A DNA stretch of 64,000 nt from an uncultured Verrucomicrobiae bacterium (GCA_963837955.1 CAWIPH010000002.1:10966-74965), one strand, 5' to 3'; counted from the stretch's first letter, positions 12,897 through 24,782 are shown. A program made the numbers and translations. Notes: generated from the sequence alone by a model not told the origin.

Positions 12897-14822
12897 TTGC
12901 GGATGATAGCCGAGCATTTGGTCAATGGTTTGATTCTGTCGGCAGCAATCTTCCTTGGGTCAATATTGTTATTCCGTTTTCTCCTCCGCGAACAGCGTTG
13001 GAGCGCTGCCACCCGCCACCGAGTCTTGCTTCTGACCTTTTTTGTTCTAGCTAGCACTCCGATCCTAACGGCGCTGAAACCAACGCGACCGAGTGACAGT
13101 CTGCCTAGAACTGGGCAGCTCTTGGCGGAACAACCTTGGCCCACAGAAATTCAAATGTTTTCTGGCGTGGCTGTACCATCGGAAGCCAATCGCTCTACGC
13201 CCCAGCATCATTGGCGACAGCCCGGCTTTTGGCTGCGCTGGATCGACTGGCCCGTAGCTCTGGCCGTGCTATGGACAATGCTCGTCTTGGTTTATTTTTA
13301 TCGTTTGGCGGCGGCTATCAATAGGCTTCGACTTCTTCATCGCAGCGCACGACCTCTGACGGTTTCGACGGACCTCACGTTCCGCCGAAAAATAACGATC
13401 GCCGAATCCTCGCGTATTTCTTCTCCGGTAGCGGTGGGTCTATGGTCGCCAAAGGTACTACTGCCATCAAATTTTCAGTCGGGTTTTTCTGTGGAGGATC
13501 GCGCGAACGTGTTGCGCCATGAAATCGCGCATCTTGAGCGGTTTGATGACTGGTCGAATCTGGCGCAGCAACTCTTCATTGCCTTATTTCCGATAAACCC
13601 CTTTCTCTGGATCCTACGCAAGCGATTGCAACTTCAGGAAGAGATCGCTTGTGACGACTGGGCATTAGCGGGCGCTGATCAGCCGAAAAACTATGCGAGT
13701 CTGCTCACTCGCTTGGCTGCCAGTTATCACGGAGGGCCGTCGCTGGTGTCCGGGGTGAGCCGAGGCGGCAAACACCTTTACCGACGGGTGTCGCGCATTT
13801 TGGATAAGAACTGTAACCGGAGTCTCAAACCATCTTGGCGAAGCACTCTGTTGGCTGGGCTTGGTTTGATTTTCTCGTTGGCTGGAGGCCTGTTTTGGTT
13901 GCCGGCGGTGGTATGGACGTCGCCCGCTCAAGCAGCAGAGGTTCAAAACACGCCCGCGAACCAAGATAGCAAACCCCAGAAGCTAAGTACCGAAGTCATT
14001 ACGTTGCTAAAGAATTCAGCGTTGAACGACCCGGATGCAGGAGTTCGCCGAGAGGCGGTGAACGCTTTGGTCAGAGCGGCTGGCGACGAGGCTACCACTG
14101 CGCTTCTGGCTCTTTTGAATGAGAGCAAGGATGATCAGGTCAAGCTGCTCATCTTACGCCGGCTCGATCGTGAACGGGTAGGCGAAGCCAGAGTCAAGGA
14201 GAAGCTGAACGAGCTGGCAGCACATGAACAGTCGTTGCCGATCAGAATAGCAGCGCTAAGCGCGTTGGCCCGCACTATCGACGAGAGTGCGGTCGAGAAG
14301 TTCATTTCGATCTATCGATCCGCCTCCGAACCGCCGATTAAAGAGGCCTGCTTGTACGGGTTAACCGGAACACCTTCCAACGTAGCGAAGGATTTTCTGA
14401 TTTCGGTTGCCAAAGATGATCCGGATCCGGTGATGCGACGGGTGGCGCTGCGCGCAGTTTCTGGTTCAACGGGAAAACGGATTATGATCCGGACCAAGGG
14501 GGCCATGATAGATGGTGGGGAGTTAGAAGATTTAGGCTATTTTTCGCTTGGCCAAGTTCCCGAGGGCTTAGACGAAATGGTTTTACAACCGAGAGCCGAT
14601 CTCCTCGATTCGCCCGAAGGCCTGGCCGATCTCGAGAAAAAGAGAGCGGACGTCTTAGCGCAACGAGCAGAACAGCTGAAACAGCGCATCCAGGCGATTC
14701 CGTTACCGAAGATTCCTGGTGAGGAGTCCGAATTGGAGCCTCCGAGCGCCCCGACTCCGCCCGAATTGCCGTCCAACAAGTCTACTGGCGGGCCTTCTCC
14801 AAAGCCTTCTCCAAATCGGTAG
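12897..14822 (+). CDS. BlaR1-like M56 membrane metalloprotease with C-terminal HEAT-like repeats and a Pro-rich tail
   Basis: The N-terminal TM segments are followed by the HExxH motif in LRHEIAHLERFDDW. The C-terminal half has HEAT/PBS-lyase-like repeats (DPDAGVRREAVNALVRAAGDEATTALLALL..., DDPDPVMRRVALRAV). No penicillin-binding sensor domain was recognised. Confidence 0.85.
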   Translation: MRMIAEHLVNGLILSAAIFLGSILLFRFLLREQRWSAATRHRVLLLTFFVLASTPILTALKPTRPSDSLPRTGQLLAEQPWPTEIQMFSGVAVPSEANRSTPQHHWRQPGFWLRWIDWPVALAVLWTMLVLVYFYRLAAAINRLRLLHRSARPLTVSTDLTFRRKITIAESSRISSPVAVGLWSPKVLLPSNFQSGFSVEDRANVLRHEIAHLERFDDWSNLAQQLFIALFPINPFLWILRKRLQLQEEIACDDWALAGADQPKNYASLLTRLAASYHGGPSLVSGVSRGGKHLYRRVSRILDKNCNRSLKPSWRSTLLAGLGLIFSLAGGLFWLPAVVWTSPAQAAEVQNTPANQDSKPQKLSTEVITLLKNSALNDPDAGVRREAVNALVRAAGDEATTALLALLNESKDDQVKLLILRRLDRERVGEARVKEKLNELAAHEQSLPIRIAALSALARTIDESAVEKFISIYRSASEPPIKEACLYGLTGTPSNVAKDFLISVAKDDPDPVMRRVALRAVSGSTGKRIMIRTKGAMIDGGELEDLGYFSLGQVPEGLDEMVLQPRADLLDSPEGLADLEKKRADVLAQRAEQLKQRIQAIPLPKIPGEESELEPPSAPTPPELPSNKSTGGPSPKPSPNR

Positions 14823-14830
14823 GGATGCCG

Positions 14831-14977
14831 ACGTAGCCTGATCCTCCTGGCTCAGAGAGCGTGTCAGTGATCAGTGATTGGTGAGAAGTGAATAGTGGAA
14901 CTTATCGGCAAAATCTTTTGCTAATCACTAATCACCAATCACTCACCCGCACCCTGAGGCTGGAGCATCAGGCTACT
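14831..14977. repeat. MITE-like palindromic repeat element (copy 1)
   Basis: Imperfect terminal inverted repeats are GACGTAGCCTGATCCTCCTGGCTCAGAG (left) and CCTGAGGCTGGAGCATCAGGCTAC (right). The inside holds GTGATTG-type heptamers facing CACTAAT/CACCAAT heptamers. The element ends 1 nt from the stop codon of the Na/Pi gene. Confidence 0.75.
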
Positions 14978-14978
14978 T

Positions 14979-16682
14979 TCAAACGGGCAGAGCCTCGGTG
15001 GAAGCTAACTTTGCCTCGTGATTCTCCTCAACTTCAGTCGAGCTCAAAAACTTCTGATCGATCTCCGAAAAATCGCCCCGTGGCTGATCTGACTTATTCG
15101 CATTTCGAACCAAAGCATAAGCGATCGACGTCAACTGGCTGTTGATCCGCCGCAGACTATCAAGCAAATCGAGAAAGTTAGAGTTCGTAGACTGGATTGG
15201 TTTCTCCAGGCGCTGCTTACGGAAGACTCGCAATTGATTGTTAATTTCCTCTTTTTCTCGGATTAATTGTACCGCGAAGTGCTGGTCCCGTGACATAACG
15301 AGCATGGCGACTTTCGCGATGCGTTTCAGCGTGCGCGAGTAAAGAGTCTCCAGCTCTCGGCGATCTTCCGGCGAAAGTTCATGCGTCGATCGAGCTTCGC
15401 GTAATGCGGCTTCAGAAAGGTCCCGCCGGATAAGCGTGCCGACGGTGCACAGATCTTGGGCGTAGTCCAAAACAATGAGCTTCCAGTCAATATCCTCTTC
15501 GCTCAGATTCTCGTCGCTCACCTGGCTGAGATAGTCTTTAAGACCTTCCTCTGTCTGCTCGACCCGCCTTTGCTGTTCTTCGATCTTGCTTACCAGATGA
15601 ACATTCTTTGCTGAAAAGATTGCCCGGACCGTGCGTAGCATCAGCTTTAATTGATCCATTAACCGCAGTTCCTCGCGAGCGGCATGGTTGAGGGCCAACG
15701 ACGGCGACTGCAGCAGAAGCGGATCAAGATAGCTGTCGGTCTCGCCGGAGTCGTCGGAATTTGGGGATTCAACCAGGAAAACGATAATTCGGTAGATCAG
15801 CGAGAGCACAGGTAAAGCTGCGAGGCCGAGCACCAGATTGAACAACGTATTCAAATTCGCAGCCTGTCGATCGATCTCGCCCGGAAGAAGGTGGATGATG
15901 AAAGTAAACAAACGGGAACTGGCCACGAGCAAGACGGCTGCTCCGCAGCCCTTAATCAGAAGGCTGCCGATCGCGAGCCGGCGGCCCTCGATGCTGCCCC
16001 AGCCCGCAATCATCATGGTGAGCGTGATTCCGAGATTTGCGCCCAGCACCCATGGCACCATCGTCGCACCTGGAAGCAATCCGGATTGGGCTAGTCCAAT
16101 GCCCAATCCGATGGAAGCCGTCGAACTTTGAAGGATAACGGTCAGCAGTGCTGTCGCCAGAAACACTAGCAGGGGATAGTGTTCAGCGACGCCGAAGACC
16201 AGCTTCAGATCTGGATTGGCAGCGGCGACGCTTCCCGCTTTTCCGATCATTTCCATCGCTAAGAAAATCAGACCGATCCCCAGCAGCATTTGGCCGACTC
16301 CGCGAAAAATCGCGCGGTTCGAAAATAGGAATCCGATTCCTCCGGCGACAAGAAAGACACCGGCGTAGTCCTGTAAGCGAAGCGCCAGTAACTGGACCGA
16401 AACCGTGATACCGACGTTTGCTCCTAAAACGATGGCTAACATGCGCTCAGCCGTTAGCGTCGTTTCATTCAACATCTGCACCGACAACATCGCTATGGCG
16501 CTCGACGATGGCGCGACGCAGCCAGCCACTGCACCGGCGAAGAACGCTTGATAACGATTCTTTGTCATCTGTTGCAGCCAATCGACTAGTCGATTGCCTA
16601 ACAGACGATCCAGGCCTTTGCGTACGTAGCGCATGCCCAGAAGTACAAGGATGACACCAGTCGCGATATTCAGGAACGGCAT
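14979..16682 (-). CDS. Na+/phosphate cotransporter family protein (NptA/YjbB-like) with PhoU-like C-terminal region
   Basis: The N-terminus MPFLNIATGVILVLLGMRYVRKGLDRLLGNRL...SSSAIAMLSV and a repeated membrane half (TVILQSSTASIGLGIGLA) match Na_Pi_cotrans repeats. The soluble helical C-terminal ~220 aa resembles a PhoU-like region. Confidence 0.85.
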   Translation of the reverse strand: MPFLNIATGVILVLLGMRYVRKGLDRLLGNRLVDWLQQMTKNRYQAFFAGAVAGCVAPSSSAIAMLSVQMLNETTLTAERMLAIVLGANVGITVSVQLLALRLQDYAGVFLVAGGIGFLFSNRAIFRGVGQMLLGIGLIFLAMEMIGKAGSVAAANPDLKLVFGVAEHYPLLVFLATALLTVILQSSTASIGLGIGLAQSGLLPGATMVPWVLGANLGITLTMMIAGWGSIEGRRLAIGSLLIKGCGAAVLLVASSRLFTFIIHLLPGEIDRQAANLNTLFNLVLGLAALPVLSLIYRIIVFLVESPNSDDSGETDSYLDPLLLQSPSLALNHAAREELRLMDQLKLMLRTVRAIFSAKNVHLVSKIEEQQRRVEQTEEGLKDYLSQVSDENLSEEDIDWKLIVLDYAQDLCTVGTLIRRDLSEAALREARSTHELSPEDRRELETLYSRTLKRIAKVAMLVMSRDQHFAVQLIREKEEINNQLRVFRKQRLEKPIQSTNSNFLDLLDSLRRINSQLTSIAYALVRNANKSDQPRGDFSEIDQKFLSSTEVEENHEAKLASTEALPV

Positions 16683-16837
16683 ATTGTTTTCAATCTCGCT
16701 AAGGGTTTCTCACACTACATATTGGCCTCTCTATCGGCGTTATGCTGCTCATACCGTGCAGCCACATACCTATTGTAGATTCAGCCGGATTAACAACCAA
16801 CGGCCACCCCGATTAAAAAAATTTAATGAAAGAAGCG

Positions 16838-17009
16838 GACGTAGCCTGATCCTCCTGGCTCAGAGGTACATCGTGTGAGAGGTGAGAAGTGATTGGTGAA
16901 TAGTGGATGCATATCGGCAAGTCCTCGGTAGAAATCCCCATCACCCTTTCACTAATCACTAATCACCAATCACGCGCTGTACCCCTGAGCCAGGAGGATC
17001 AGGCTACGT
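16838..17009. repeat. MITE-like palindromic repeat element (copy 2, near-perfect TIRs)
   Basis: GACGTAGCCTGATCCTCCTGGCTCAGAGG (16838-16866) faces CCCTGAGCCAGGAGGATCAGGCTACGT (16983-17009). The internal GTGAGAAGTGATTGGTGAATAGTGG faces CACTAATCACTAATCACCAATCAC. It has the same orientation as copy 1. Confidence 0.8.
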
Positions 17010-17033
17010 TGCCCAGCACGCCGATACGGCACA

Positions 17034-19730
17034 CTATATCCACGATCGGTATCGTCGAAGAAACCAGGCCTTGACCACCTGAGTGAGTAAACAATAAGCA
17101 ACGAGGATTCCGCTCAACCAACAAAAGTAAATCAGGGGTAACCGGACCAGACCAATCGCGGATCCGATGCTCGTGAAAGGCAACACAGCGCCGGCAAACA
17201 TGACGATGATGGTTGTAGCAAGTAGAGGAGGACAGGCCCAACTCTGCAAGAACGGAATCTTGCGAGTTCGGATCATGTGCACGATCAGGGTCTGAGAGAG
17301 CAAGCCCTCGACGAACCAACCGGATTGGAAAAAAGCTCTTTGCTCACCCGTCCCCACACCGAAAAGCCACCATAGTAGAGCAAACGTCGCGAGATCGAAA
17401 ATCGAACTGATTGGGCCAAAAACCATCATGAACCGCGCGATTCCTTGAGACTCCCAACGACGCGGTCGCGCCAGATCTTCCGGGTCAACGGGATCAAAAG
17501 GGATGGTTGTTTGAGAAAGATCGTATAAAAGATTCTGGACTAACAATTGGAGCGGTAACATTGGCAAAAAAGATAAGAAGGCGCTGGAACCGAGAATCGT
17601 CAGAACGTTTCCGAAATTCGAGCTAGCGGCCATCTTTATATACTTGACGATATTGGCCGAATTTCGCCTTCCCTCGACCACGACGTTCACCAGACCGGTG
17701 AGACTCTTTTCTAGCATGATGATGTCCGCCGATTCTTTCGCGACATCGACTGCTGTGTCCACGGAGATCCCAACATCCGCTTCCCGGAGCGCAGCCGCGT
17801 CGTTAATTCCATCGCCCAAAAAGCCGACGGTGTTTCCTGCTGCTTTCAAAGCCGAGATCACGCGCGACTTCTGCAAAGGCGTCAGCTTGGCGAAAAGCGT
17901 GGTTTGAGTAACAGCTCTTTTCAGCTCCTCCTCAGTCAGTGATTCGACTTCGCTCCCGAGCAGAACATTATTCACTTCGAGATCAACCCATTTGCAAATC
18001 CGGCGAGCGACTAATTCGCTGTCTCCCGTCAAAATTTTCACCTCCACACCTTCTCGCCGCAGTGCGGCTAGCGCTTCGGTAGCTGACTCCTTTGGTGGAT
18101 CCAAGAAAGCGATAAAACCAACTAACACGAGGTCGCGTTCGTCGTTTGCCAGATACTTATAGCTAGTCTGATCGACCGAAATGTCTTTGTAGGCGACCGC
18201 CAGTACGCGAAGACCATCCATGCTCAACTCGTCCCGCGAGAATAAAATCGATTCCCGGAGTTTGGGCGACAACGGCACAATTTTGCCATCAAGTTTTGCT
18301 GAGCTGCAGACTGCAATCACTTCTTCGACAGCGCCCTTACAAATCAGTTCGTGCTGCTGGCGGTCCTTTTCAAGAATGACGGACATCCGCCTGCGCTCGA
18401 AGTCGAAAGGGAGTTCGTCGACCTTGCGATAGCTCTCGCTGATGTGGAGCGCTTCGTGAAGTTCGCCATGCTCCAGCACAGCGGCGTCGAGCAGGTTCTT
18501 CAACCCGGTCTGAAAATAACTGTTCAGGTAAGCGTATTGCAGAACATCGTCATCTCCATTACCCAGAATATCGAGATGATGTTCCAGGATGATTCGGTCA
18601 ATCGTGAGCGTACCCGTCTTGTCGGTGCAAAGAACGTTCATCGCTCCCAGGTTTTCGATCGAGTTAAGCCGCTTAACGATTACTTTGTTTCGTACCATCG
18701 ACACGGCGCCGCGGGTAAGGTTGGCCGCAATGATGACGGGCAGCATTTCCGGGGTTAACCCGACCGCTACCGACAAAGCGAAAAGAAGGGAGGAGGCCCA
18801 GTCTCCCTTGGTCAAGCCGTTTAGCAGGAGTACGACGGGGAGGACCGCGAACATGAACCGGATGAATAACCAGCTAATGCTGTTGATGCCCTGATCAAAG
18901 CTGGTGAAAGAGCGCTGGCTTCTCGTTCGCTCGACGAACGACGCAAAAAGCGTGTCACCGCCGGTGGCTATAACGAGAGCCGTAGCTGTCCCACTGACAA
19001 CATTGGTGCCCATGAAACAGAGATTCGCCAGATCGGAAGGTTGCAGAATCTCTTTGGCGGAAGTCCGTCTTGCTCTCGTTGTCGAAGGCTGCAGTGTATC
19101 AAATTTTTCGGTGGGCAGCGCTTCACCGCTTAAAACCGATTCACTCACAAATAGATCGCGGGTTGTGAGCAGTCGGACGTCACCCGGGATCATGTCGCCG
19201 GCGCGGAGATAAATCACATCGCCCGGGACCACTTCTCGCAGCGGGATCTCTTGTTCTTGGCTTTTTCCGGAGGCAATTGTTCGACTGACCGTTACGGTTG
19301 TACTTACCAGGGCGCGCAAACGCGCCACGGTGCGAGTCGAACGGAATTCTTGTACGAATCGGAGCAACACACTGATGGTGACCATCAGGAGAATCAGCGA
19401 GCCGGCTGCGTTATCTCTCAACAAAAAGGAAACGACGCTCAAGACGCTGAGAAGAATAACAAAGGGGTTTCCGAAGTTACGGAGAAACTGCGAGAAGATC
19501 GACGCGGTTCGATCGTAGGTTACGGAATTATATCCGTATTCCGCTAAGCGGCTCTTTGCTTCCGTTTCGCTTAGACCATGCTCGGAAGTACGGAGGGATC
19601 GAAAAAGCTCTTCCGGTAGCGAATAAGCTGCGTCGAGGGTTTGGGGACGAATTCTTTTGGAAGCCGGAATGATACCCGGTTTGCTCGCAGCAATTTTCGG
19701 GAGTTTGCCCGGTGTCGAAAAGAGGCTCAC
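17034..19730 (-). CDS. mgtA: Magnesium-translocating P-type ATPase
   Basis: The 898-aa ORF has the phosphorylation motif CTDKTGTLT, the hinge GDGINDAAALREADVGISV, and TGES-like LSGEALP. Length and topology fit the MgtA/MgtB class. A 4-bp overlap joins it to the upstream kinase gene. Confidence 0.9.
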   Translation of the reverse strand: MSLFSTPGKLPKIAASKPGIIPASKRIRPQTLDAAYSLPEELFRSLRTSEHGLSETEAKSRLAEYGYNSVTYDRTASIFSQFLRNFGNPFVILLSVLSVVSFLLRDNAAGSLILLMVTISVLLRFVQEFRSTRTVARLRALVSTTVTVSRTIASGKSQEQEIPLREVVPGDVIYLRAGDMIPGDVRLLTTRDLFVSESVLSGEALPTEKFDTLQPSTTRARRTSAKEILQPSDLANLCFMGTNVVSGTATALVIATGGDTLFASFVERTRSQRSFTSFDQGINSISWLFIRFMFAVLPVVLLLNGLTKGDWASSLLFALSVAVGLTPEMLPVIIAANLTRGAVSMVRNKVIVKRLNSIENLGAMNVLCTDKTGTLTIDRIILEHHLDILGNGDDDVLQYAYLNSYFQTGLKNLLDAAVLEHGELHEALHISESYRKVDELPFDFERRRMSVILEKDRQQHELICKGAVEEVIAVCSSAKLDGKIVPLSPKLRESILFSRDELSMDGLRVLAVAYKDISVDQTSYKYLANDERDLVLVGFIAFLDPPKESATEALAALRREGVEVKILTGDSELVARRICKWVDLEVNNVLLGSEVESLTEEELKRAVTQTTLFAKLTPLQKSRVISALKAAGNTVGFLGDGINDAAALREADVGISVDTAVDVAKESADIIMLEKSLTGLVNVVVEGRRNSANIVKYIKMAASSNFGNVLTILGSSAFLSFLPMLPLQLLVQNLLYDLSQTTIPFDPVDPEDLARPRRWESQGIARFMMVFGPISSIFDLATFALLWWLFGVGTGEQRAFFQSGWFVEGLLSQTLIVHMIRTRKIPFLQSWACPPLLATTIIVMFAGAVLPFTSIGSAIGLVRLPLIYFCWLSGILVAYCLLTQVVKAWFLRRYRSWI

Positions 19731-20755
19731 GATTGATCTTTAGTCTCGCGACCAGTCTCTTCTGAAATTTGCAAACTGACCTCATACCACCCGTTCTGGC
19801 GATTGGTGCTGAGCTCGATATTCCCTTGCAGGGCAACCAATGCGGCGACGATGCGGCGTCCCAGACCGATGTTGTGTGCGTCGTCGGCATCTTCGAGCCG
19901 TATCTGATTCCTAATCGAGAGAATTGTGGCATCAGTCTCGGTTTGAACGGTCGCGTGAATCGTTCCCTTTCCATGGCGCAAACTGTTGGTCAGGAGACTA
20001 TAGAGAATCTGTTTAAAATACCTTGGATCGGCGTTTATGGGCGCTTGCTTGGAAACGACCTCGATCAGTCGTTCCTGATCTCGAGCGAGTAAACGGAAAT
20101 CTTCAGCGACGTCATTAAGCAGCTCTGCCAAGTCGAATCTTATTCGATCGGGCTTCAGATGTCCCTGTTCGGCCCGCGCAATGAGGAGGGCCTGTTCGAC
20201 ATGCATGGTTAGCCGGAGCAGCTCCGTTTGGATCTCCTCAGCTAAGTTAGGCTCGATCTTGTCGGCCGCCTCTTCGATCTTGAGCCGGATGATAGTCAAG
20301 GGGGCTCTCAGCTCGTGGGCGACTTGGGCTGAATAGCTCTGCAATTGGTGAAGAGTTAAGCTGACGCGGGATAGCAGGCCGTTGATGTGATTTTGGAGCT
20401 CCTGCAACTCGGGTTCATCCGTTTCTATGCGGACTTGAACCTGTAGGTTATGCGGTTCGATCGCGTCCAATTGATCGTTGAGCAAAACGATCGGCTTAAA
20501 CGCGGTGCGGGTGACCAGCCAACCGGCACCAGCAAAAGCTGCCGCCACCAGGACGCCGTACGAGACCAAGAGAATCGGTGATAGTACGATCGATTTTCCT
20601 GGGCCTCCAGGTTGGACCGATGCTACGTCCGGATTGCTATTGGTGATACGCTGACTGTAAATCTGAAAATAAGCGGCCGTTCCGAAAAAGACCGCGGATA
20701 CTCCGAGAAAGGTAAGCAAAAACCACAAGTAAATCCGCGACCAGAACGTCTTCAT
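19727..20755 (-). CDS. Sensor histidine kinase with a very short extracytoplasmic loop
   Basis: Two N-terminal TM segments flank a ~25-aa loop. These are followed by a HAMP-like linker, the H-box AHELRAPLT and an ATPase domain (...GLGRRIVAALV...). A 4-bp overlap joins it to the regulator gene. Confidence 0.85.
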   Translation of the reverse strand: MKTFWSRIYLWFLLTFLGVSAVFFGTAAYFQIYSQRITNSNPDVASVQPGGPGKSIVLSPILLVSYGVLVAAAFAGAGWLVTRTAFKPIVLLNDQLDAIEPHNLQVQVRIETDEPELQELQNHINGLLSRVSLTLHQLQSYSAQVAHELRAPLTIIRLKIEEAADKIEPNLAEEIQTELLRLTMHVEQALLIARAEQGHLKPDRIRFDLAELLNDVAEDFRLLARDQERLIEVVSKQAPINADPRYFKQILYSLLTNSLRHGKGTIHATVQTETDATILSIRNQIRLEDADDAHNIGLGRRIVAALVALQGNIELSTNRQNGWYEVSLQISEETGRETKDQS

Positions 20756-21429
20756 GTGTCCGCTTTGCGCAGGGCAAATCCGACTCCACGCACGGTTTGC
20801 ACAAGCGGAACCAAGCCGGGCAAATCAATCTTCGAGCGCAGGTGGTTCATATAAACGTTCACGACGTTGGTTTGAGAGTCGAAGAACTGATTCCAAACCC
20901 GCTCAACGATCACGGCTTTGCTTACCGGCTTTGGCGCGGTCATCATTAACACTTCCAGGAGCGCAAACTCCCGGTTAGTCAGCTCGATTACCTTTCCGGC
21001 ACGCTTGGCCTGACGCGAAACGAGATCTAACTCGAGGTCCTCGAATCTCAGCAGATTGGAGGCTTGTGGCCTTTGCCGTCGCAAGAGCGCTCGGAGTCGA
21101 GCAAGTAGTTCGACAACCGAGAAAGGCTTAACCATGTAGTCGTCGCCGCCGACGTCCAGGCCCCGCACTCTGTCCTCGATCTCTCCCCTGGCGGTGAGGA
21201 ATAGGACCGGGGTCTGATTCTCTTTCCGGCGAAGAGATCGCGCAATGGTGAACCCATCGCGAATCGGCATCATGACATCCAGGATGATCGCGTCGTAAGA
21301 GTTGTTTTCCGCCAGCCAGAGTGCTTCGTCGCCGTCCTCGGCATAATCCACCGCGTATCCTTCAGCAGTCAGCGCCTGCTGAATATGCTTGCCGACCCTG
21401 ATATCATCGTCAGCAAGAAGTATTCGCAT
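20752..21429 (-). CDS. OmpR/PhoB-family response regulator
   Basis: The receiver domain reads MRILLADDD...AIILDVMMP...FLTARGE. The winged-helix output reads LTNREFALLEVLM...VRGVGFALR. Confidence 0.9.
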   Translation of the reverse strand: MRILLADDDIRVGKHIQQALTAEGYAVDYAEDGDEALWLAENNSYDAIILDVMMPIRDGFTIARSLRRKENQTPVLFLTARGEIEDRVRGLDVGGDDYMVKPFSVVELLARLRALLRRQRPQASNLLRFEDLELDLVSRQAKRAGKVIELTNREFALLEVLMMTAPKPVSKAVIVERVWNQFFDSQTNVVNVYMNHLRSKIDLPGLVPLVQTVRGVGFALRKADT

Positions 21430-21478
21430 TGCTCCAATCTAAGACTAGGGATGCCGATCACAATGGACCGGATCGATC

Positions 21479-21715
21479 TTATTTCTTCGTAAGTATTTGA
21501 GTGGCGAGATCGAAGACATGGTACATGAACAACCCGACCATCAGAAGCAGATAGACTCGCAGGGAGATGAGTGACCAGCGTACGCTATTGGTCATTTCCA
21601 TTGGCGGGAGATGATCGGACTTGAGCTTCTGCTCCGGAATATCGTCAAGCGGATGCACGACCAGGAAATAATTGTGTTCCTGCGGACTGGGTAGTTGAGT
21701 CGATGATAGAGCCAT
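21479..21715 (-). CDS. Small single-pass membrane protein, unknown function
   Basis: This 78-aa ORF has a C-terminal TM helix (WSLISLRVYLLLMVGLFMYHVF). It is wedged between the NRAMP gene and the two-component genes on the same strand. No family was recognised. Confidence 0.4.
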   Translation of the reverse strand: MALSSTQLPSPQEHNYFLVVHPLDDIPEQKLKSDHLPPMEMTNSVRWSLISLRVYLLLMVGLFMYHVFDLATQILTKK

Positions 21716-21743
21716 AGAGTTCCCTTTCTTAGGTGGTTTGGTT

Positions 21744-23069
21744 TCAGCTGCTGGTCGGGAATAGTTGCGGCGCCATGACTTGGGCGGCCAGGATCAACGA
21801 AAGAGCAAACAGGACGGTGATGATGGTCCAGTTGATGATATTATTCCATCGCTTGTTGACCCATTCATCGCCGAGCAGCTTATGGTCGTTGAGCAGCAGC
21901 TGCAGGAAGATAATCGCCGAGGGGAGAATGATCCCGGCTAACACCTGAACGCCCAGGATAATCAATTGGAGAGGCGCTCCCGGGATCAGAACAATCGATG
22001 CCGCGAGTAAGGTGCAGACCGCGTAGATGCTATAGAAACCCGGAGCATCTTTGAACGACATGTTCAGGCTGTGTTTCCATCCTCGGACCTCGCTGTAGGC
22101 CCAAGCGCTGGACAAGGAGATGGCCGTAGTACCAAGGACGGCGGCGTTGCAAAACATTAGCAAAATGGCATTACGAACGAACTCGTTAGTAAACGGTAGG
22201 ATCGCTTCGGCCATTTTTGCGGGATCCTCATAAGTCAGTCCGTGTTGGTGCGAGACATTGCCAACGATAATCATCGCTCCGGCCACCGTAACAGTGAAAG
22301 TAGCGCCAATTAACGTGTCCAAGCGTGCCCACTTCAGATCCGCAAAGCGCAGTTTTTTATCCGCGATACAGCTCTGCTGAAAGAAGAGCTGCCAGGGCGC
22401 GATCGTCGTACCGACAATAGCGATAACCAAGAAGACAAGGTTCGGGGTGATGCCTCCTGGCGGGATGTTCGGGATGAGCGTGTGACGCACAACCGAGCTT
22501 GCGTGCGGGTGAGAAAAGAACGCGTTGACCAACCAAATAAGATCCAACAAGCAAAGTACGCACGTGATGCGCTCCCAACGTTTGTACCTTTGCGTTATTA
22601 CGTGAATAACCAAGAGGATGGCTGCGATCGGCACCGAAATGTAGGGACTGATTCCCATTTGCTGAGTCGCCAAGGAAATCGCGGCGAATTCGGTTACGAG
22701 GGTTAGGAAATTGACTAGCAACAGGTCGAAGAGCGAGAAGCGGCCCCACCATTTACCAAATCGCTCGTAGATCATCGCGGCGTGACCCTTACCGGTGGCA
22801 ATCCCTAACCGGACCACCATTTCCTGAATGAAGTAGCAGACCGGCAACAGCAGCAGCATCAGCCAGAGCAAATTGAGGCCGTACTGGCCGCCTGCTTGCG
22901 TATAGGTCGAGACGGCGCCGGCATCGTTGTCCGCTTCCATGACGATCAGGCCCGGGCCGAACACCATGAAAAAGGTAAGGATATTCCGCGCCCAGGTACC
23001 CTTCACTCGATACCCCCGGACCGGTGTGCGGAGTTCGTCCGCCGGTCCGCTCTCGGGCACCGGGCTCAT
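21744..23069 (-). CDS. NRAMP/SLC11-family divalent cation transporter with a non-canonical (NRMT-like, Mg2+-type) binding site
   Basis: GPGLIVMEADNDAGAVSTYTQAGGQYGLNLLW aligns with the canonical GPGF..a.iDPGNiatd.qaGa.yGy.LLW, so DPGN becomes DAGA. The TM6 segment GTTIAPWQLFF aligns with the canonical GA.vMPHnlyL, so Ala becomes Thr, Met becomes Ala, and His becomes Trp. A GGAGG motif sits 7 nt upstream of the ATG. Confidence 0.85.
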   Translation of the reverse strand: MSPVPESGPADELRTPVRGYRVKGTWARNILTFFMVFGPGLIVMEADNDAGAVSTYTQAGGQYGLNLLWLMLLLLPVCYFIQEMVVRLGIATGKGHAAMIYERFGKWWGRFSLFDLLLVNFLTLVTEFAAISLATQQMGISPYISVPIAAILLVIHVITQRYKRWERITCVLCLLDLIWLVNAFFSHPHASSVVRHTLIPNIPPGGITPNLVFLVIAIVGTTIAPWQLFFQQSCIADKKLRFADLKWARLDTLIGATFTVTVAGAMIIVGNVSHQHGLTYEDPAKMAEAILPFTNEFVRNAILLMFCNAAVLGTTAISLSSAWAYSEVRGWKHSLNMSFKDAPGFYSIYAVCTLLAASIVLIPGAPLQLIILGVQVLAGIILPSAIIFLQLLLNDHKLLGDEWVNKRWNNIINWTIITVLFALSLILAAQVMAPQLFPTSS

Positions 23070-23296
23070 TGAGCGCCTCCTTCTCTCAGTTCCACGATTG
23101 GATCGAGTCGGTAGTCCGGAACCCCGGCAGCTTGGTTGTCCTCCAGTGGCGTTCTCTCACGGCTCATAATAATTCTCCCTGTTTAATTACGTTACGGAGC
23201 CGCGGGCGAAGCGGCGATAGCGACACAGGGCAATCTGCCAGAGCACGATAAATTTCCGGGAAGCCTGGGATTAAAAATTCTTAATCTTGGGCCAAC

Positions 23297-23481
23297 GACG
23301 TAGCTTGATCCTCCTGGCTCAGGGGGGCGCAGAGTGTGATTGGTGGGGCCTATCGGCAAATCTTCGGCAAAAATCCCCCCACCTCCCTCTCACTAATCAC
23401 TAATTTAGTAAGCGGTCGGCGTACCTGGCGTATCCGATCTCCGGCATCGGCTCCCCGCTTACTAATCTAATCACTGATCAC
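23297..23481. repeat. Truncated/rearranged copy of the MITE-like element
   Basis: The left TIR GACGTAGCTTGATCCTCCTGGCTCAGGGG is present, with GTGATTGG and CACTAATCACTAAT modules. No matching right TIR is found. It contains an extra hairpin, TTAGTAAGCGG...CCGCTTACTAA. Confidence 0.65.
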
Positions 23482-24390: not shown

Positions 24391-24404
24391 AGTTGGACCG
24401 AAGA

Positions 24405-24782
24405 GAAACTCACGCCAAGCGGCGAAAGAATCTCACGCAAAGACCCGGAGAATCTCACGCAAAGACGCAAAGACGCAAAGTTTTGAAAGGGAGTCCGGGC
24501 CGTCGAAAGCCACAGTGATTTGTGAGAAGTGATTGGTGATGGGGTGAAAATCCTCGCAAAGGTAGCGTAGCCTGATGCTCCGCCTCAGGAGATTGGCGCG
24601 CCTTGGATTCCTGAGGCGGAGCATCAGGCTACTCTGGCTTCGTTCCGCCCATAAAACGGCATCGACCGCATTGTCCGCTCAAACTTTGCGTCTTTGCGTC
24701 TTTGCGTGAGATTCGAATAAGGACCGGCGGGAGCCGATCCCTACCGGTCTTGGCGTGAGATTCTTCTTTGCGTGAGATCTCA
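24405..24782. repeat. ~380-bp nested palindrome built from 8-mer, 7-mer and TIR-like modules
   Basis: A perfect 31-bp inverted repeat pairs GAATCTCACGCAAAGACGCAAAGACGCAAAG (24450-24480) with CTTTGCGTCTTTGCGTCTTTGCGTGAGATTC (24684-24714). The central perfect hairpin pairs GTAGCCTGATGCTCCGCCTCAGGA (24567-24590) with TCCTGAGGCGGAGCATCAGGCTAC (24609-24632). GTGATTTGTGAGAAGTGATTGGTGA lies in between, and additional CTCACGC copies lie at both outer edges. Confidence 0.85.

Follow-up and report, generated by a model that had tools for sequence, protein, structure and literature searches.

A putative self-regulated Mg2+-acquisition cluster of a Chthoniobacterales bacterium, combining an NRMT-type NRAMP transporter and a small membrane partner with a compact two-component system and MgtA

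A 64,000-nucleotide stretch of DNA from an uncultured Verrucomicrobiae bacterium (GCA_963837955.1 CAWIPH010000002.1:10966-74965; hereafter the window) was analysed for a cluster of five minus-strand genes at positions 17034–23069, which encodes a transporter of the NRAMP family, a 78-residue membrane protein (p78), an OmpR-family response regulator, a histidine kinase and an MgtA-type P-type ATPase. We favour, with reasonable rather than strong confidence, the reading that these genes form a cluster for Mg2+ acquisition that regulates itself, in a bacterium of the Chthoniobacterales (Verrucomicrobiota), and that two modules have been combined in it. The first module would consist of an NRAMP of the NRMT type and p78 as its single-pass partner, and the second, which would represent the conserved core of a family of Mg2+-transporter clusters, of the OmpR-type regulator with its compact kinase and of ATP-driven MgtA. 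Low Mg2+ would raise the output of the kinase, and the phosphorylated regulator would activate a promoter upstream of the NRAMP gene, with the channel-like importer, the ATP-driven importer and the two-component system itself being made together under positive autoregulation. The M-box riboswitch that controls many orthologous NRAMP–p78 pairs elsewhere would in this lineage be replaced by the two-component system. The cluster, which comes from a soil bacterium, is a new combination of known Mg2+-uptake parts, not a new type of system.

Family assignments were based on profile models from Pfam and NCBIfam with curated cut-offs. The cluster comprises the NRAMP gene (21744–23069, 441 residues), followed by the genes for p78 (21479–21715), the response regulator (20752–21429, 225 residues), the kinase (19727–20755, 342 residues) and MgtA (17034–19730, 898 residues, GTG start). 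The regulator gene overlaps the kinase gene by 4 bp, as does the kinase gene that of MgtA, and gaps of 28 bp between NRAMP and p78 and of 49 bp between p78 and the regulator each contain a Shine-Dalgarno-like sequence. An earlier note on this DNA had described five minus-strand genes lying close together, and its coordinates, families and both overlaps were all reproduced. The same applies to the ATPase that it had called MgtA, which scored above both curated equivalog cut-offs (NF011702, 1195 bits against 975; TIGR01524, 1172 bits against 611), carries the catalytic DKTGT at residue 370 and, judged by these scores, is an ordinary, true MgtA-type Mg2+-importing P-type ATPase (P3B).

An identical five-gene order was found in a Chthoniobacterales metagenome-assembled genome (locus L001), whose proteins were 86% (NRAMP), 68% (p78), 93% (regulator), 61% (kinase) and 71% (MgtA) identical to those of the window. 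The leader DNAs of the two loci could not be aligned, and the gene upstream of the cluster is a co-directional rmlA in the window and a divergent 495-residue open reading frame (ORF) in L001. Since the order is shared despite these differing flanks, the arrangement is not a product of chance; by sequence comparison, the five genes are a conserved unit, and they would be co-transcribed. That they are instead chance neighbours without functional unity is very improbable indeed. Such an explanation could draw on the fact that no promoter, operator or terminator was identified with confidence, but it is opposed by the two overlaps, the gaps of 28 and 49 bp, the order shared with L001 and the linkage of the same gene families, in other orders, in other phyla.

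The NRAMP matched the Pfam Nramp family (PF01566) with 236 bits and the MntH model NF001923 with 102 bits, compared with a cut-off of 430 for the latter. Its best match among solved structures was EleNRMT from Eggerthella lenta (PDB 7QIA; E = 1e-61, 212 bits), followed at a distance by the best MntH chain, with 66 bits, and by NRAT, a transporter of Al3+ in plants, with 33 bits. In a quick neighbour-joining tree computed from NRMT-side sequences and MntH, the window protein fell within a tight subclade, here termed A, with a sister subclade B of about 45% identity; EleNRMT branched outside both, and the MntH proteins were far off. By these measures, the window NRAMP is on the NRMT side of the family, apart from MntH, in line with the placement first proposed. 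Subclade A was found in Acidobacteriota, Verrucomicrobiota, Armatimonadota, Chloroflexota and Bacteroidota, is abundant in soil bacteria and numbers more than 7000 homologues at E ≤ 1e-10. It was sampled through 50 genome loci encoding NRAMP orthologues of the window protein, with neighbourhoods of 8 kb.

NRMT proteins are distinguished by the signature DxxG on α1 and TxxA/T on α6, in contrast to DxxN and A/CxxM in classical NRAMPs (Ramanadane et al. 2022, PMC8806188). The window protein reads EADNDAGAV on α1 (D49, A52) and GTTIAPWQ on α6 (G220, T221, A224, a proline and W226), which yields a site of D49-A-G-A52 and T221-T-I-A224, i.e. DxxA/TxxA. On α1, the aspartate is kept, the asparagine ligand is lost and an alanine stands in place of the consensus glycine. 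On α6, TxxA fits the NRMT signature, with the methionine ligand replaced by alanine and the alanine by a threonine that is critical for Mg2+ in EleNRMT (PMC8806188). Residues E127 (α3) and Q375 (α10) align with Glu133 and Gln379 of EleNRMT, and both proton-pathway histidines of α6b are replaced, by W226 and a glutamine, as evident from the alignment of APWQLFFQQ in the window with MPHNLYLHS in ScaDMT and APWMMFFNQ in EleNRMT. The window NRAMP is probably a proton-uncoupled NRMT-type transporter. It resembles the described NRMT/NrmT proteins (CabNRMT from Clostridium acetobutylicum, Shin et al. 2014; EleNRMT, 7QIA) in the Nramp fold, the TxxA motif, the M-box control of orthologues, the loss of the asparagine, methionine and proton-pathway histidines and the retention of the aspartate, glutamate and glutamine. 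It differs from EleNRMT, to which it is about 31% identical in a MAFFT alignment, in belonging to a separate sublineage, and it departs from the published consensus in having alanine rather than glycine on α1.

This alanine is a property of the subclade. The motif NDAGA was present in 119 of the 120 close homologues listed, M-box-regulated ones included, and the α1 alanine in 46 of the 50 subclade-A loci, the translations of the other four being incomplete or mis-parsed; subclade B carries NDAGG, with glycine. Since the published consensus is DxxG, DAGA is a variant of it. The motifs DAGA and T..APW quoted in the earlier note are both present as given, and its description of the substitutions as NRMT-type stands for TxxA and for the loss of methionine and asparagine; on α1, the window has DxxA and published NRMT proteins have DxxG.

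With respect to substrate, M-box riboswitches were sought with Rfam and with our own model built from the Rfam matches. They were detected upstream of the NRAMP gene in 13 of the 50 subclade-A loci, in orthologues that are 65–72% identical and share the DxxA/TxxA site, and they also preceded the NRAMP gene at six subclade-B loci; their position was on the coding strand, 330–900 nt upstream. The M-box has been proposed as a marker of Mg2+-specific NrmT (Shin et al., PMC4072509). Other Mg2+ genes recurred in the neighbourhoods, as in Mucilaginibacter (L028), with the order MgtC, MntP-like protein, MgtA, regulator, OprB porin, NRAMP and p78, and in a metagenomic contig (L088), with the order regulator, kinase, NRAMP, 69-residue protein, MgtE, MgtA-type ATPase and OprB. 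The M-boxes at orthologues and the MgtA, MgtC and MgtE neighbours provide good comparative, if indirect, evidence for Mg2+ as the predicted substrate. The preference for Mg2+ over Mn2+ and Fe2+, for which the MgtA context had originally been cited in support, is thereby backed, independently of the motif though indirectly, by orthologue M-boxes and by co-location with MgtC, MgtE and MgtA.

The gene for p78 is a near-constant companion of this transporter. A homologue was located directly downstream of the NRAMP gene in 48 of the 50 subclade-A loci, in at least six phyla and at gaps of about −4 to 60 bp, and most of these loci had neither MgtA nor a two-component system of the window type within 8 kb. 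Among 1.84 billion proteins, 198 representative p78 clusters were found, nearly all of them free-standing and of 55–120 residues. No Pfam or NCBIfam family matches p78, which is annotated in the source genome as 'hypothetical protein'. The family is characterised by the motif VVHPLDDxPExK, followed by one transmembrane helix bearing LRxYL.

Subclade-B NRAMPs have no separate p78 gene and are instead 70–90 residues longer, with a tail after helix 11 that comprises an extra helix, an arginine-rich linker that contains W(R/T)MPPLALLxRPxWS, and a final helix that contains LRxYLVVAVLLLxVKAVQLG. When the p78 family was compared profile to profile with the tails, the two aligned over 40 columns at a probability of 93.7% (E = 1.9e-7), their LRxYL motifs being in register. 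A p78 hidden Markov model was then run on all 13,741 stop-to-stop ORFs of every locus fetched; it matched the p78 genes, the 69-residue gene of L088 and the last 30–40 residues of the subclade-B NRAMP ORFs, and no other gene, apart from three unchecked matches (secondary domains on L045 and L068 and one match internal to the ORF at L066:10269–12011). In sequence, the protein of L088 (…ALRWSLMALRIYLVVLILLLVIKFASL) stands midway between free p78 and the fused form. Long stop-to-stop ORFs in L033, L039, L043 and L044 were considered as in-frame NRAMP–p78 fusions, and all four were rejected; inspection of the frames by hand showed that the long ORFs of L033 and L044 are in a different reading frame from that of the NRAMP.

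EleNRMT has 11 helices, which places its C-terminus outside the cell, so that the fused forms need helix 12 to return the linker to the cytoplasm. By inference, the acidic N-terminal motif of p78 would be cytoplasmic and its C-terminus outside. As far as can be judged from the sequences, p78 is the free-standing version of the helix fused to the NRAMP C-terminus in subclade B. While EleNRMT stops at 11 helices, the window transporter has a separate partner, which in subclade B is fused as helices 12–13. Because p78 is fused to the transporter in one lineage and tightly linked to it in another, it is most likely a transporter subunit and not a modulator of the kinase. The earlier note had listed the 78-residue membrane protein and had missed this predicted role as a conserved transporter partner; a limited literature search turned up neither a small NRMT partner nor an operon of this composition. 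That p78 is a kinase modulator comparable to MgrB or SafA we hold to be quite improbable. It is small, single-pass and encoded directly upstream of the regulator and kinase genes, and small membrane proteins of such a kind are reported to regulate PhoQ. Against this role stand its position behind the NRAMP gene in 48 of 50 loci, almost always in the absence of this two-component system within 8 kb, the fusion of its helix to the transporter itself in subclade B and the situation in L087, which retains the kinase family with neither a p78 match nor an NRAMP; the disrupted cluster of L086 likewise has no p78 match.

The regulator matched the Pfam families Response_reg (99 bits) and Trans_reg_C (75 bits), with D51 as the phosphate acceptor. 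Among the NCBIfam models, the CusR type TIGR01387 scored best (247.7 bits against a cut-off of 279.2), followed by HprR (207 bits) and PmrA (195 bits), all below their cut-offs, and the PhoP model NF008078 gave 139 bits against 336. The best model for the kinase was TIGR01386 (109.3 bits against 292.55); in Pfam, it matched HisKA with 27.5 bits and HATPase_c with 21 bits, the latter under the cut-off of 26.4. The kinase consists of two transmembrane helices (residues 6–30 and 53–82) separated by an outer loop of about 22 residues, a HAMP-like linker, H147 and N257. This loop is not conserved in L001, where a 6-residue indel is found, while the DHp region shows a single substitution over residues 136–199. 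An unconserved loop above a conserved cytoplasmic core suggests a sensing site in the membrane or the cytoplasm, or sensing by way of a transporter, with Mg2+ as the presumed signal.

Beyond the N box, the kinase is unusual. Alignments to solved kinases from the PDB end at about residue 270–282, just past that box, and N257 is separated from G297-L-G299 by 40 residues, with neither a DxGxG (G1) nor an F box. The distance from the N box to G2 in typical kinases is about 55–60 residues, and the ATP-binding domain of the window protein is about 16 residues short in this lid. The shortened domain is common to the kinases of L001, L087 and L088, whereas the unrelated CusS-like kinase of L081 has full boxes; for nearly all of the 120 kinase homologues listed, HisKA alone is on record. 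The family is narrow, with 148 proteins at E ≤ 1e-20, and its named members belong to Chthoniobacterales, Verrucomicrobia and Opitutaceae.

At each of the five related loci that were examined (L001, the P0289 locus, L086, L087 and L088), the kinase homologue lies beside an MgtA-type ATPase. The P0289 locus has OprB and NRAMP genes on one strand and a diverging set of regulator, kinase, ATPase and Na/Pi cotransporter genes. L086 has the order kinase, MgtA, second ATPase and Na/Pi-PhoU, its NRAMP gene being broken by an ISL3 insertion (transposase, L086:5053–7362), and L087 has regulator, kinase, 92-residue protein, MgtA-like ATPase, CDF and RND. The regulators of L087 and L088 are 64–66% identical to that of the window and likewise adjoin an MgtA-type ATPase. 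From the gene orders of these five loci, regulator, kinase and MgtA emerge as a conserved core, to which NRAMP–p78 is variably attached as a cassette. On the sequence comparisons, the two-component system represents a new family associated with Mg2+ transporters, and heavy-metal sensors are its nearest relatives.

The label 'PhoPQ-like', which the earlier note had given to the system, was not upheld by these scores, as the CusR, HprR and PmrA models are closer than that of PhoP, leaving a functional analogy at most. Its statements on the kinase fared better: a near absence of periplasmic loop had been claimed (about 25 residues, compared with the 22 or so found), and the protein, which has no PhoQ-type periplasmic sensor domain, would not sense Mg2+ in the way PhoQ does. 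The window system resembles PhoPQ–mgtA of Salmonella and E. coli in coupling a two-component system to MgtA, and presumably to Mg2+ limitation, and positive autoregulation is plausible for it as well. In contrast to PhoPQ, its regulator is no member of the PhoP family, the transporter operon itself includes the regulator and kinase genes, and neither a leader of the mgtL type nor an mgtA leader riboswitch was found in the window. With CusRS, CopRS and HprRS, it shares the best-scoring models (TIGR01387 and TIGR01386) and the HAMP–HisKA architecture. It differs from these and from CzcRS in falling below the subfamily cut-offs, in having no periplasmic metal-binding domain, in the loss of the G1 and F boxes and of about 16 lid residues, and in its genomic partners, which are Mg2+ importers and not Cu/Ag/Zn efflux genes. 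Finally, intramembrane-sensing kinases of the BceS–BceAB type, for which a transporter encoded alongside serves as sensor, are similar in architecture, with two helices, a loop of fewer than 25 residues and genes encoded with transporters, although the transporters of the window are importers.

A number of findings weigh against the favoured reading, the first of them concerning the substrate. EleNRMT carries Mn2+ besides Mg2+ (PMC8806188). In the study of Shin et al. (2014, PMC4072509), ACP2977 from A. capsulatum, an NrmT that has no M-box, restored a Mn2+-uptake mutant in full but a Mg2+-uptake mutant only in part, and it was found to act chiefly in the import of Mn2+. Given these two proteins, the NRMT motif or clade alone is insufficient to assign a substrate. 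No M-box was detected in the window with Rfam, which returned no family there at the gathering threshold and none credible at E ≤ 10, or with our own model, which gave no match in L001 or L028 either. In addition, α1 carries alanine instead of the published glycine at a selectivity position.

On these grounds, the NRAMP–p78 pair might import mainly Mn2+, or divalent cations generally, within a mixed metal-homeostasis unit, which we consider rather unlikely. The dual transport by EleNRMT (PMC8806188) and the preference of the M-box-less ACP2977 for Mn2+ rescue (PMC4072509), in a window equally without an M-box, speak for this alternative, as do the public annotation of the window NRAMP and its 90%-identity cluster as 'Mn2+/Fe2+ NRAMP family transporter' and the proximity of regulator and kinase to heavy-metal sensor families. 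It is countered by the absence of the soft methionine and the asparagine ligand and the presence of the Mg2+-critical threonine (PMC8806188), by the M-box control of same-site orthologues of 65–72% identity and by neighbours that are MgtA, MgtC and MgtE and not Mn genes. A further argument against it is the genomic context of ACP2977, which is of the type associated with an MgtE fragment. A gene for an MgtE-N fragment adjoins most NrmT genes (Shin et al., PMC4072509), whereas none is near the window NRAMP among the proteins scanned: no MgtE_N match was obtained on them, nor is one recorded for the called genes in the three subclade-A contexts examined.

The second group of contrary findings concerns the signal and its output. 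The two-component system is, by sequence, nearest to heavy-metal sensors, and L087, whose kinase is a distant homologue (44% identical), has CDF and RND efflux genes after the ATPase. The kinase has neither G1 nor F box, and its activity is putative; since short-lid kinases of the DesK type can be active, the shortened domain is a reason to question activity and does not show that it is lost. Within the operon leader and presumed promoter region (23070–23290, minus strand), which contains no riboswitch and no recognisable regulator box, no sigma-70 consensus was found. A search for a regulator box shared with the L001 leader, through hexamer direct repeats 10–12 nt apart and common 10-mers, gave nothing convincing. 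The two leaders did not align save for a GAAGGAGGC Shine-Dalgarno-like match, and their only other match was one GAAATTTATC 10-mer at differing distances. A scan of the window for promoters and intrinsic terminators returned none in the leader and no more matches overall than shuffled sequences.

The system might answer another signal, for example heavy metals, pH, phosphate or stress on the envelope, with Mg2+ transporters as part of its output. We judge this to be improbable to about the same degree as Mn2+ import. It would accord with the best scores being those of the CusR/HprR/PmrA and CusS-type models, with the recurrent Na/Pi-PhoU neighbour and the efflux genes of L087, and with a short, unconserved outer loop in a kinase whose sequence gives no pointer to a Mg2+ site. 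However, every heavy-metal model scored below its cut-off, the narrow kinase family lies beside MgtA-type ATPases in five of five related loci and in several gene orders, and a Mg2+ riboswitch holds the same position in other lineages. Induction by low Mg2+ is what we would expect of the cluster under the favoured reading.

A further-reaching version of that reading, which is possible but which we advance tentatively, is that the cluster represents an undescribed, self-contained unit of Mg2+ sensing and uptake, with kinases that read cytoplasmic Mg2+ or transporter activity and with p78 as a required or gating subunit. The kinase would sense, for instance, via Mg-ATP or through its DHp/HAMP region and would be Mg2+-responsive while unrelated to PhoQ. 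p78 would be a split-off thirteenth helix, whose acidic cytoplasmic HPLDDxPExK could, by analogy with the MgtE-N fragment, provide feedback control by Mg2+.

Turning to the surroundings, a 33-codon ORF upstream of the NRAMP gene (23066–23167, minus strand; MSRERTPLEDNQAAGVPDYRLDPIVELREGGAQ), with a good Shine-Dalgarno sequence and an ATGA overlap with the NRAMP start, was set aside as probably due to chance, being unconserved in L001. Between the rmlA stop codon and the leader lies a palindromic repeat with a hairpin (23291–23480; hairpin arms at about 23393–23480). A related palindromic element of about 180 nt (16828–17013) starts 21 nt downstream of the mgtA stop codon. It has arms of 71 nt that are 83% complementary, and its RNA was predicted to form a very stable hairpin, about 175 nt long, with −128.9 kcal/mol and z = −12.1, which may mark where the transcript ends or stabilise it. 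Copies of this repeat family were found at 14824–14979, 16828–17013, 23291–23405 (with the hairpin continuing to about 23480) and 24559–24640, bracketing the Mg2+ operon and a Na/Pi gene. They contain a core, CGTAGCCTGATCCTCCTGGCTCAG, which matched four times in the window against none expected, plus repeats of the GTGATTGGTGA type, and look like repetitive extragenic palindromic or miniature inverted-repeat transposable elements. The interval from rmlA to a regulator gene of the Rrf2 family holds a second repeat type (24404–24483 and 24681–24780), made up of tandem units about 22 nt long (AGAATCTCACGCAAAGAC...) and of an inverted repeat, perfect over 34 nt, with arms 197 nt apart. Signs of mobility were also seen elsewhere, namely a MobA/VirD2 relaxase gene (L028:10812–11783) just downstream of the Mucilaginibacter Mg2+ island, together with the ISL3 insertion of L086.

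Downstream of the cluster, positions 14979–16682 (minus strand) encode a fusion of Na/Pi cotransporter and PhoU, with a Pfam Na_Pi_cotrans match and a weak PhoU match. Such a gene also lies downstream of the MgtA-type gene in L001, where it is convergent, in the P0289 locus and in L086 (L086:14881–16569), and it directly follows NRAMP–p78 in Ktedonosporobacter (L083:7872–9521). It may be an associated sixth gene or belong to the same regulon, and its recurrence hints at joint handling of Mg2+ and phosphate.

An OprB porin gene recurs beside NRAMP–p78 or MgtA clusters (L028:6583–7935, L081:9630–11027, L084:4559–5794, L088:14989–16305 and the P0289 locus), and this recurrence across several phyla suggests an outer-membrane route for Mg2+. 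No OprB gene adjoining the window operon was found; a 641-residue ORF at 12897–14822 was examined as a candidate and rejected, as it encodes a BlaR1-type M56 peptidase.

Among the orthologues from Acidobacteria/Bryobacterales, a short leader ORF with its own AGAAAGG Shine-Dalgarno sequence was observed between M-box and NRAMP gene (L005:7676, L013:7668, L019:3314, L021:7768, L029:3577, L031:7642, L046:7669, L048:7685 and L049:7605, and also in L007, L009, L023 and L024). The encoded peptide is conserved as M-E-P-(K/N/R)-D-D-(K/Q/R)-P-P-S, while its codons vary synonymously (GAT/GAC, CCG/CCT/CCC, AGT/TCC), which argues that selection acts on the peptide. M-box and leader ORF would form a tandem of riboswitch and leader peptide, for which we found no describing paper. 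The peptide is reminiscent of the proline-rich MgtL leader of Salmonella mgtA.

NRMT joined the list of bacterial Mg2+ importers in 2014 and, to our knowledge, is represented by a single solved structure. Judged by its sequences, subclade A is a distinct NRMT sublineage, defined by DxxA and a split or fused extra helix, with no member characterised. It is large, spans soil phyla and combines an alanine at the selectivity position and a conserved small partner with a uniform annotation as 'Mn2+/Fe2+ NRAMP', a label that is probably systematically wrong in thousands of sequences from soil metagenomes; its correction matters for metal-cycling inferences drawn from soil metagenomes. Should these transporters depend on p78 to be active or stable, the two ought to be co-expressed in heterologous studies of subclade A. 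The two-component system, in turn, would be a regulator of Mg2+ transporters outside the PhoPQ model. It occupies in the window the place that the riboswitch has in M-box-controlled NRMT lineages, and since both share this regulatory position in orthologous loci, they offer a clean natural experiment in the swapping of regulation.

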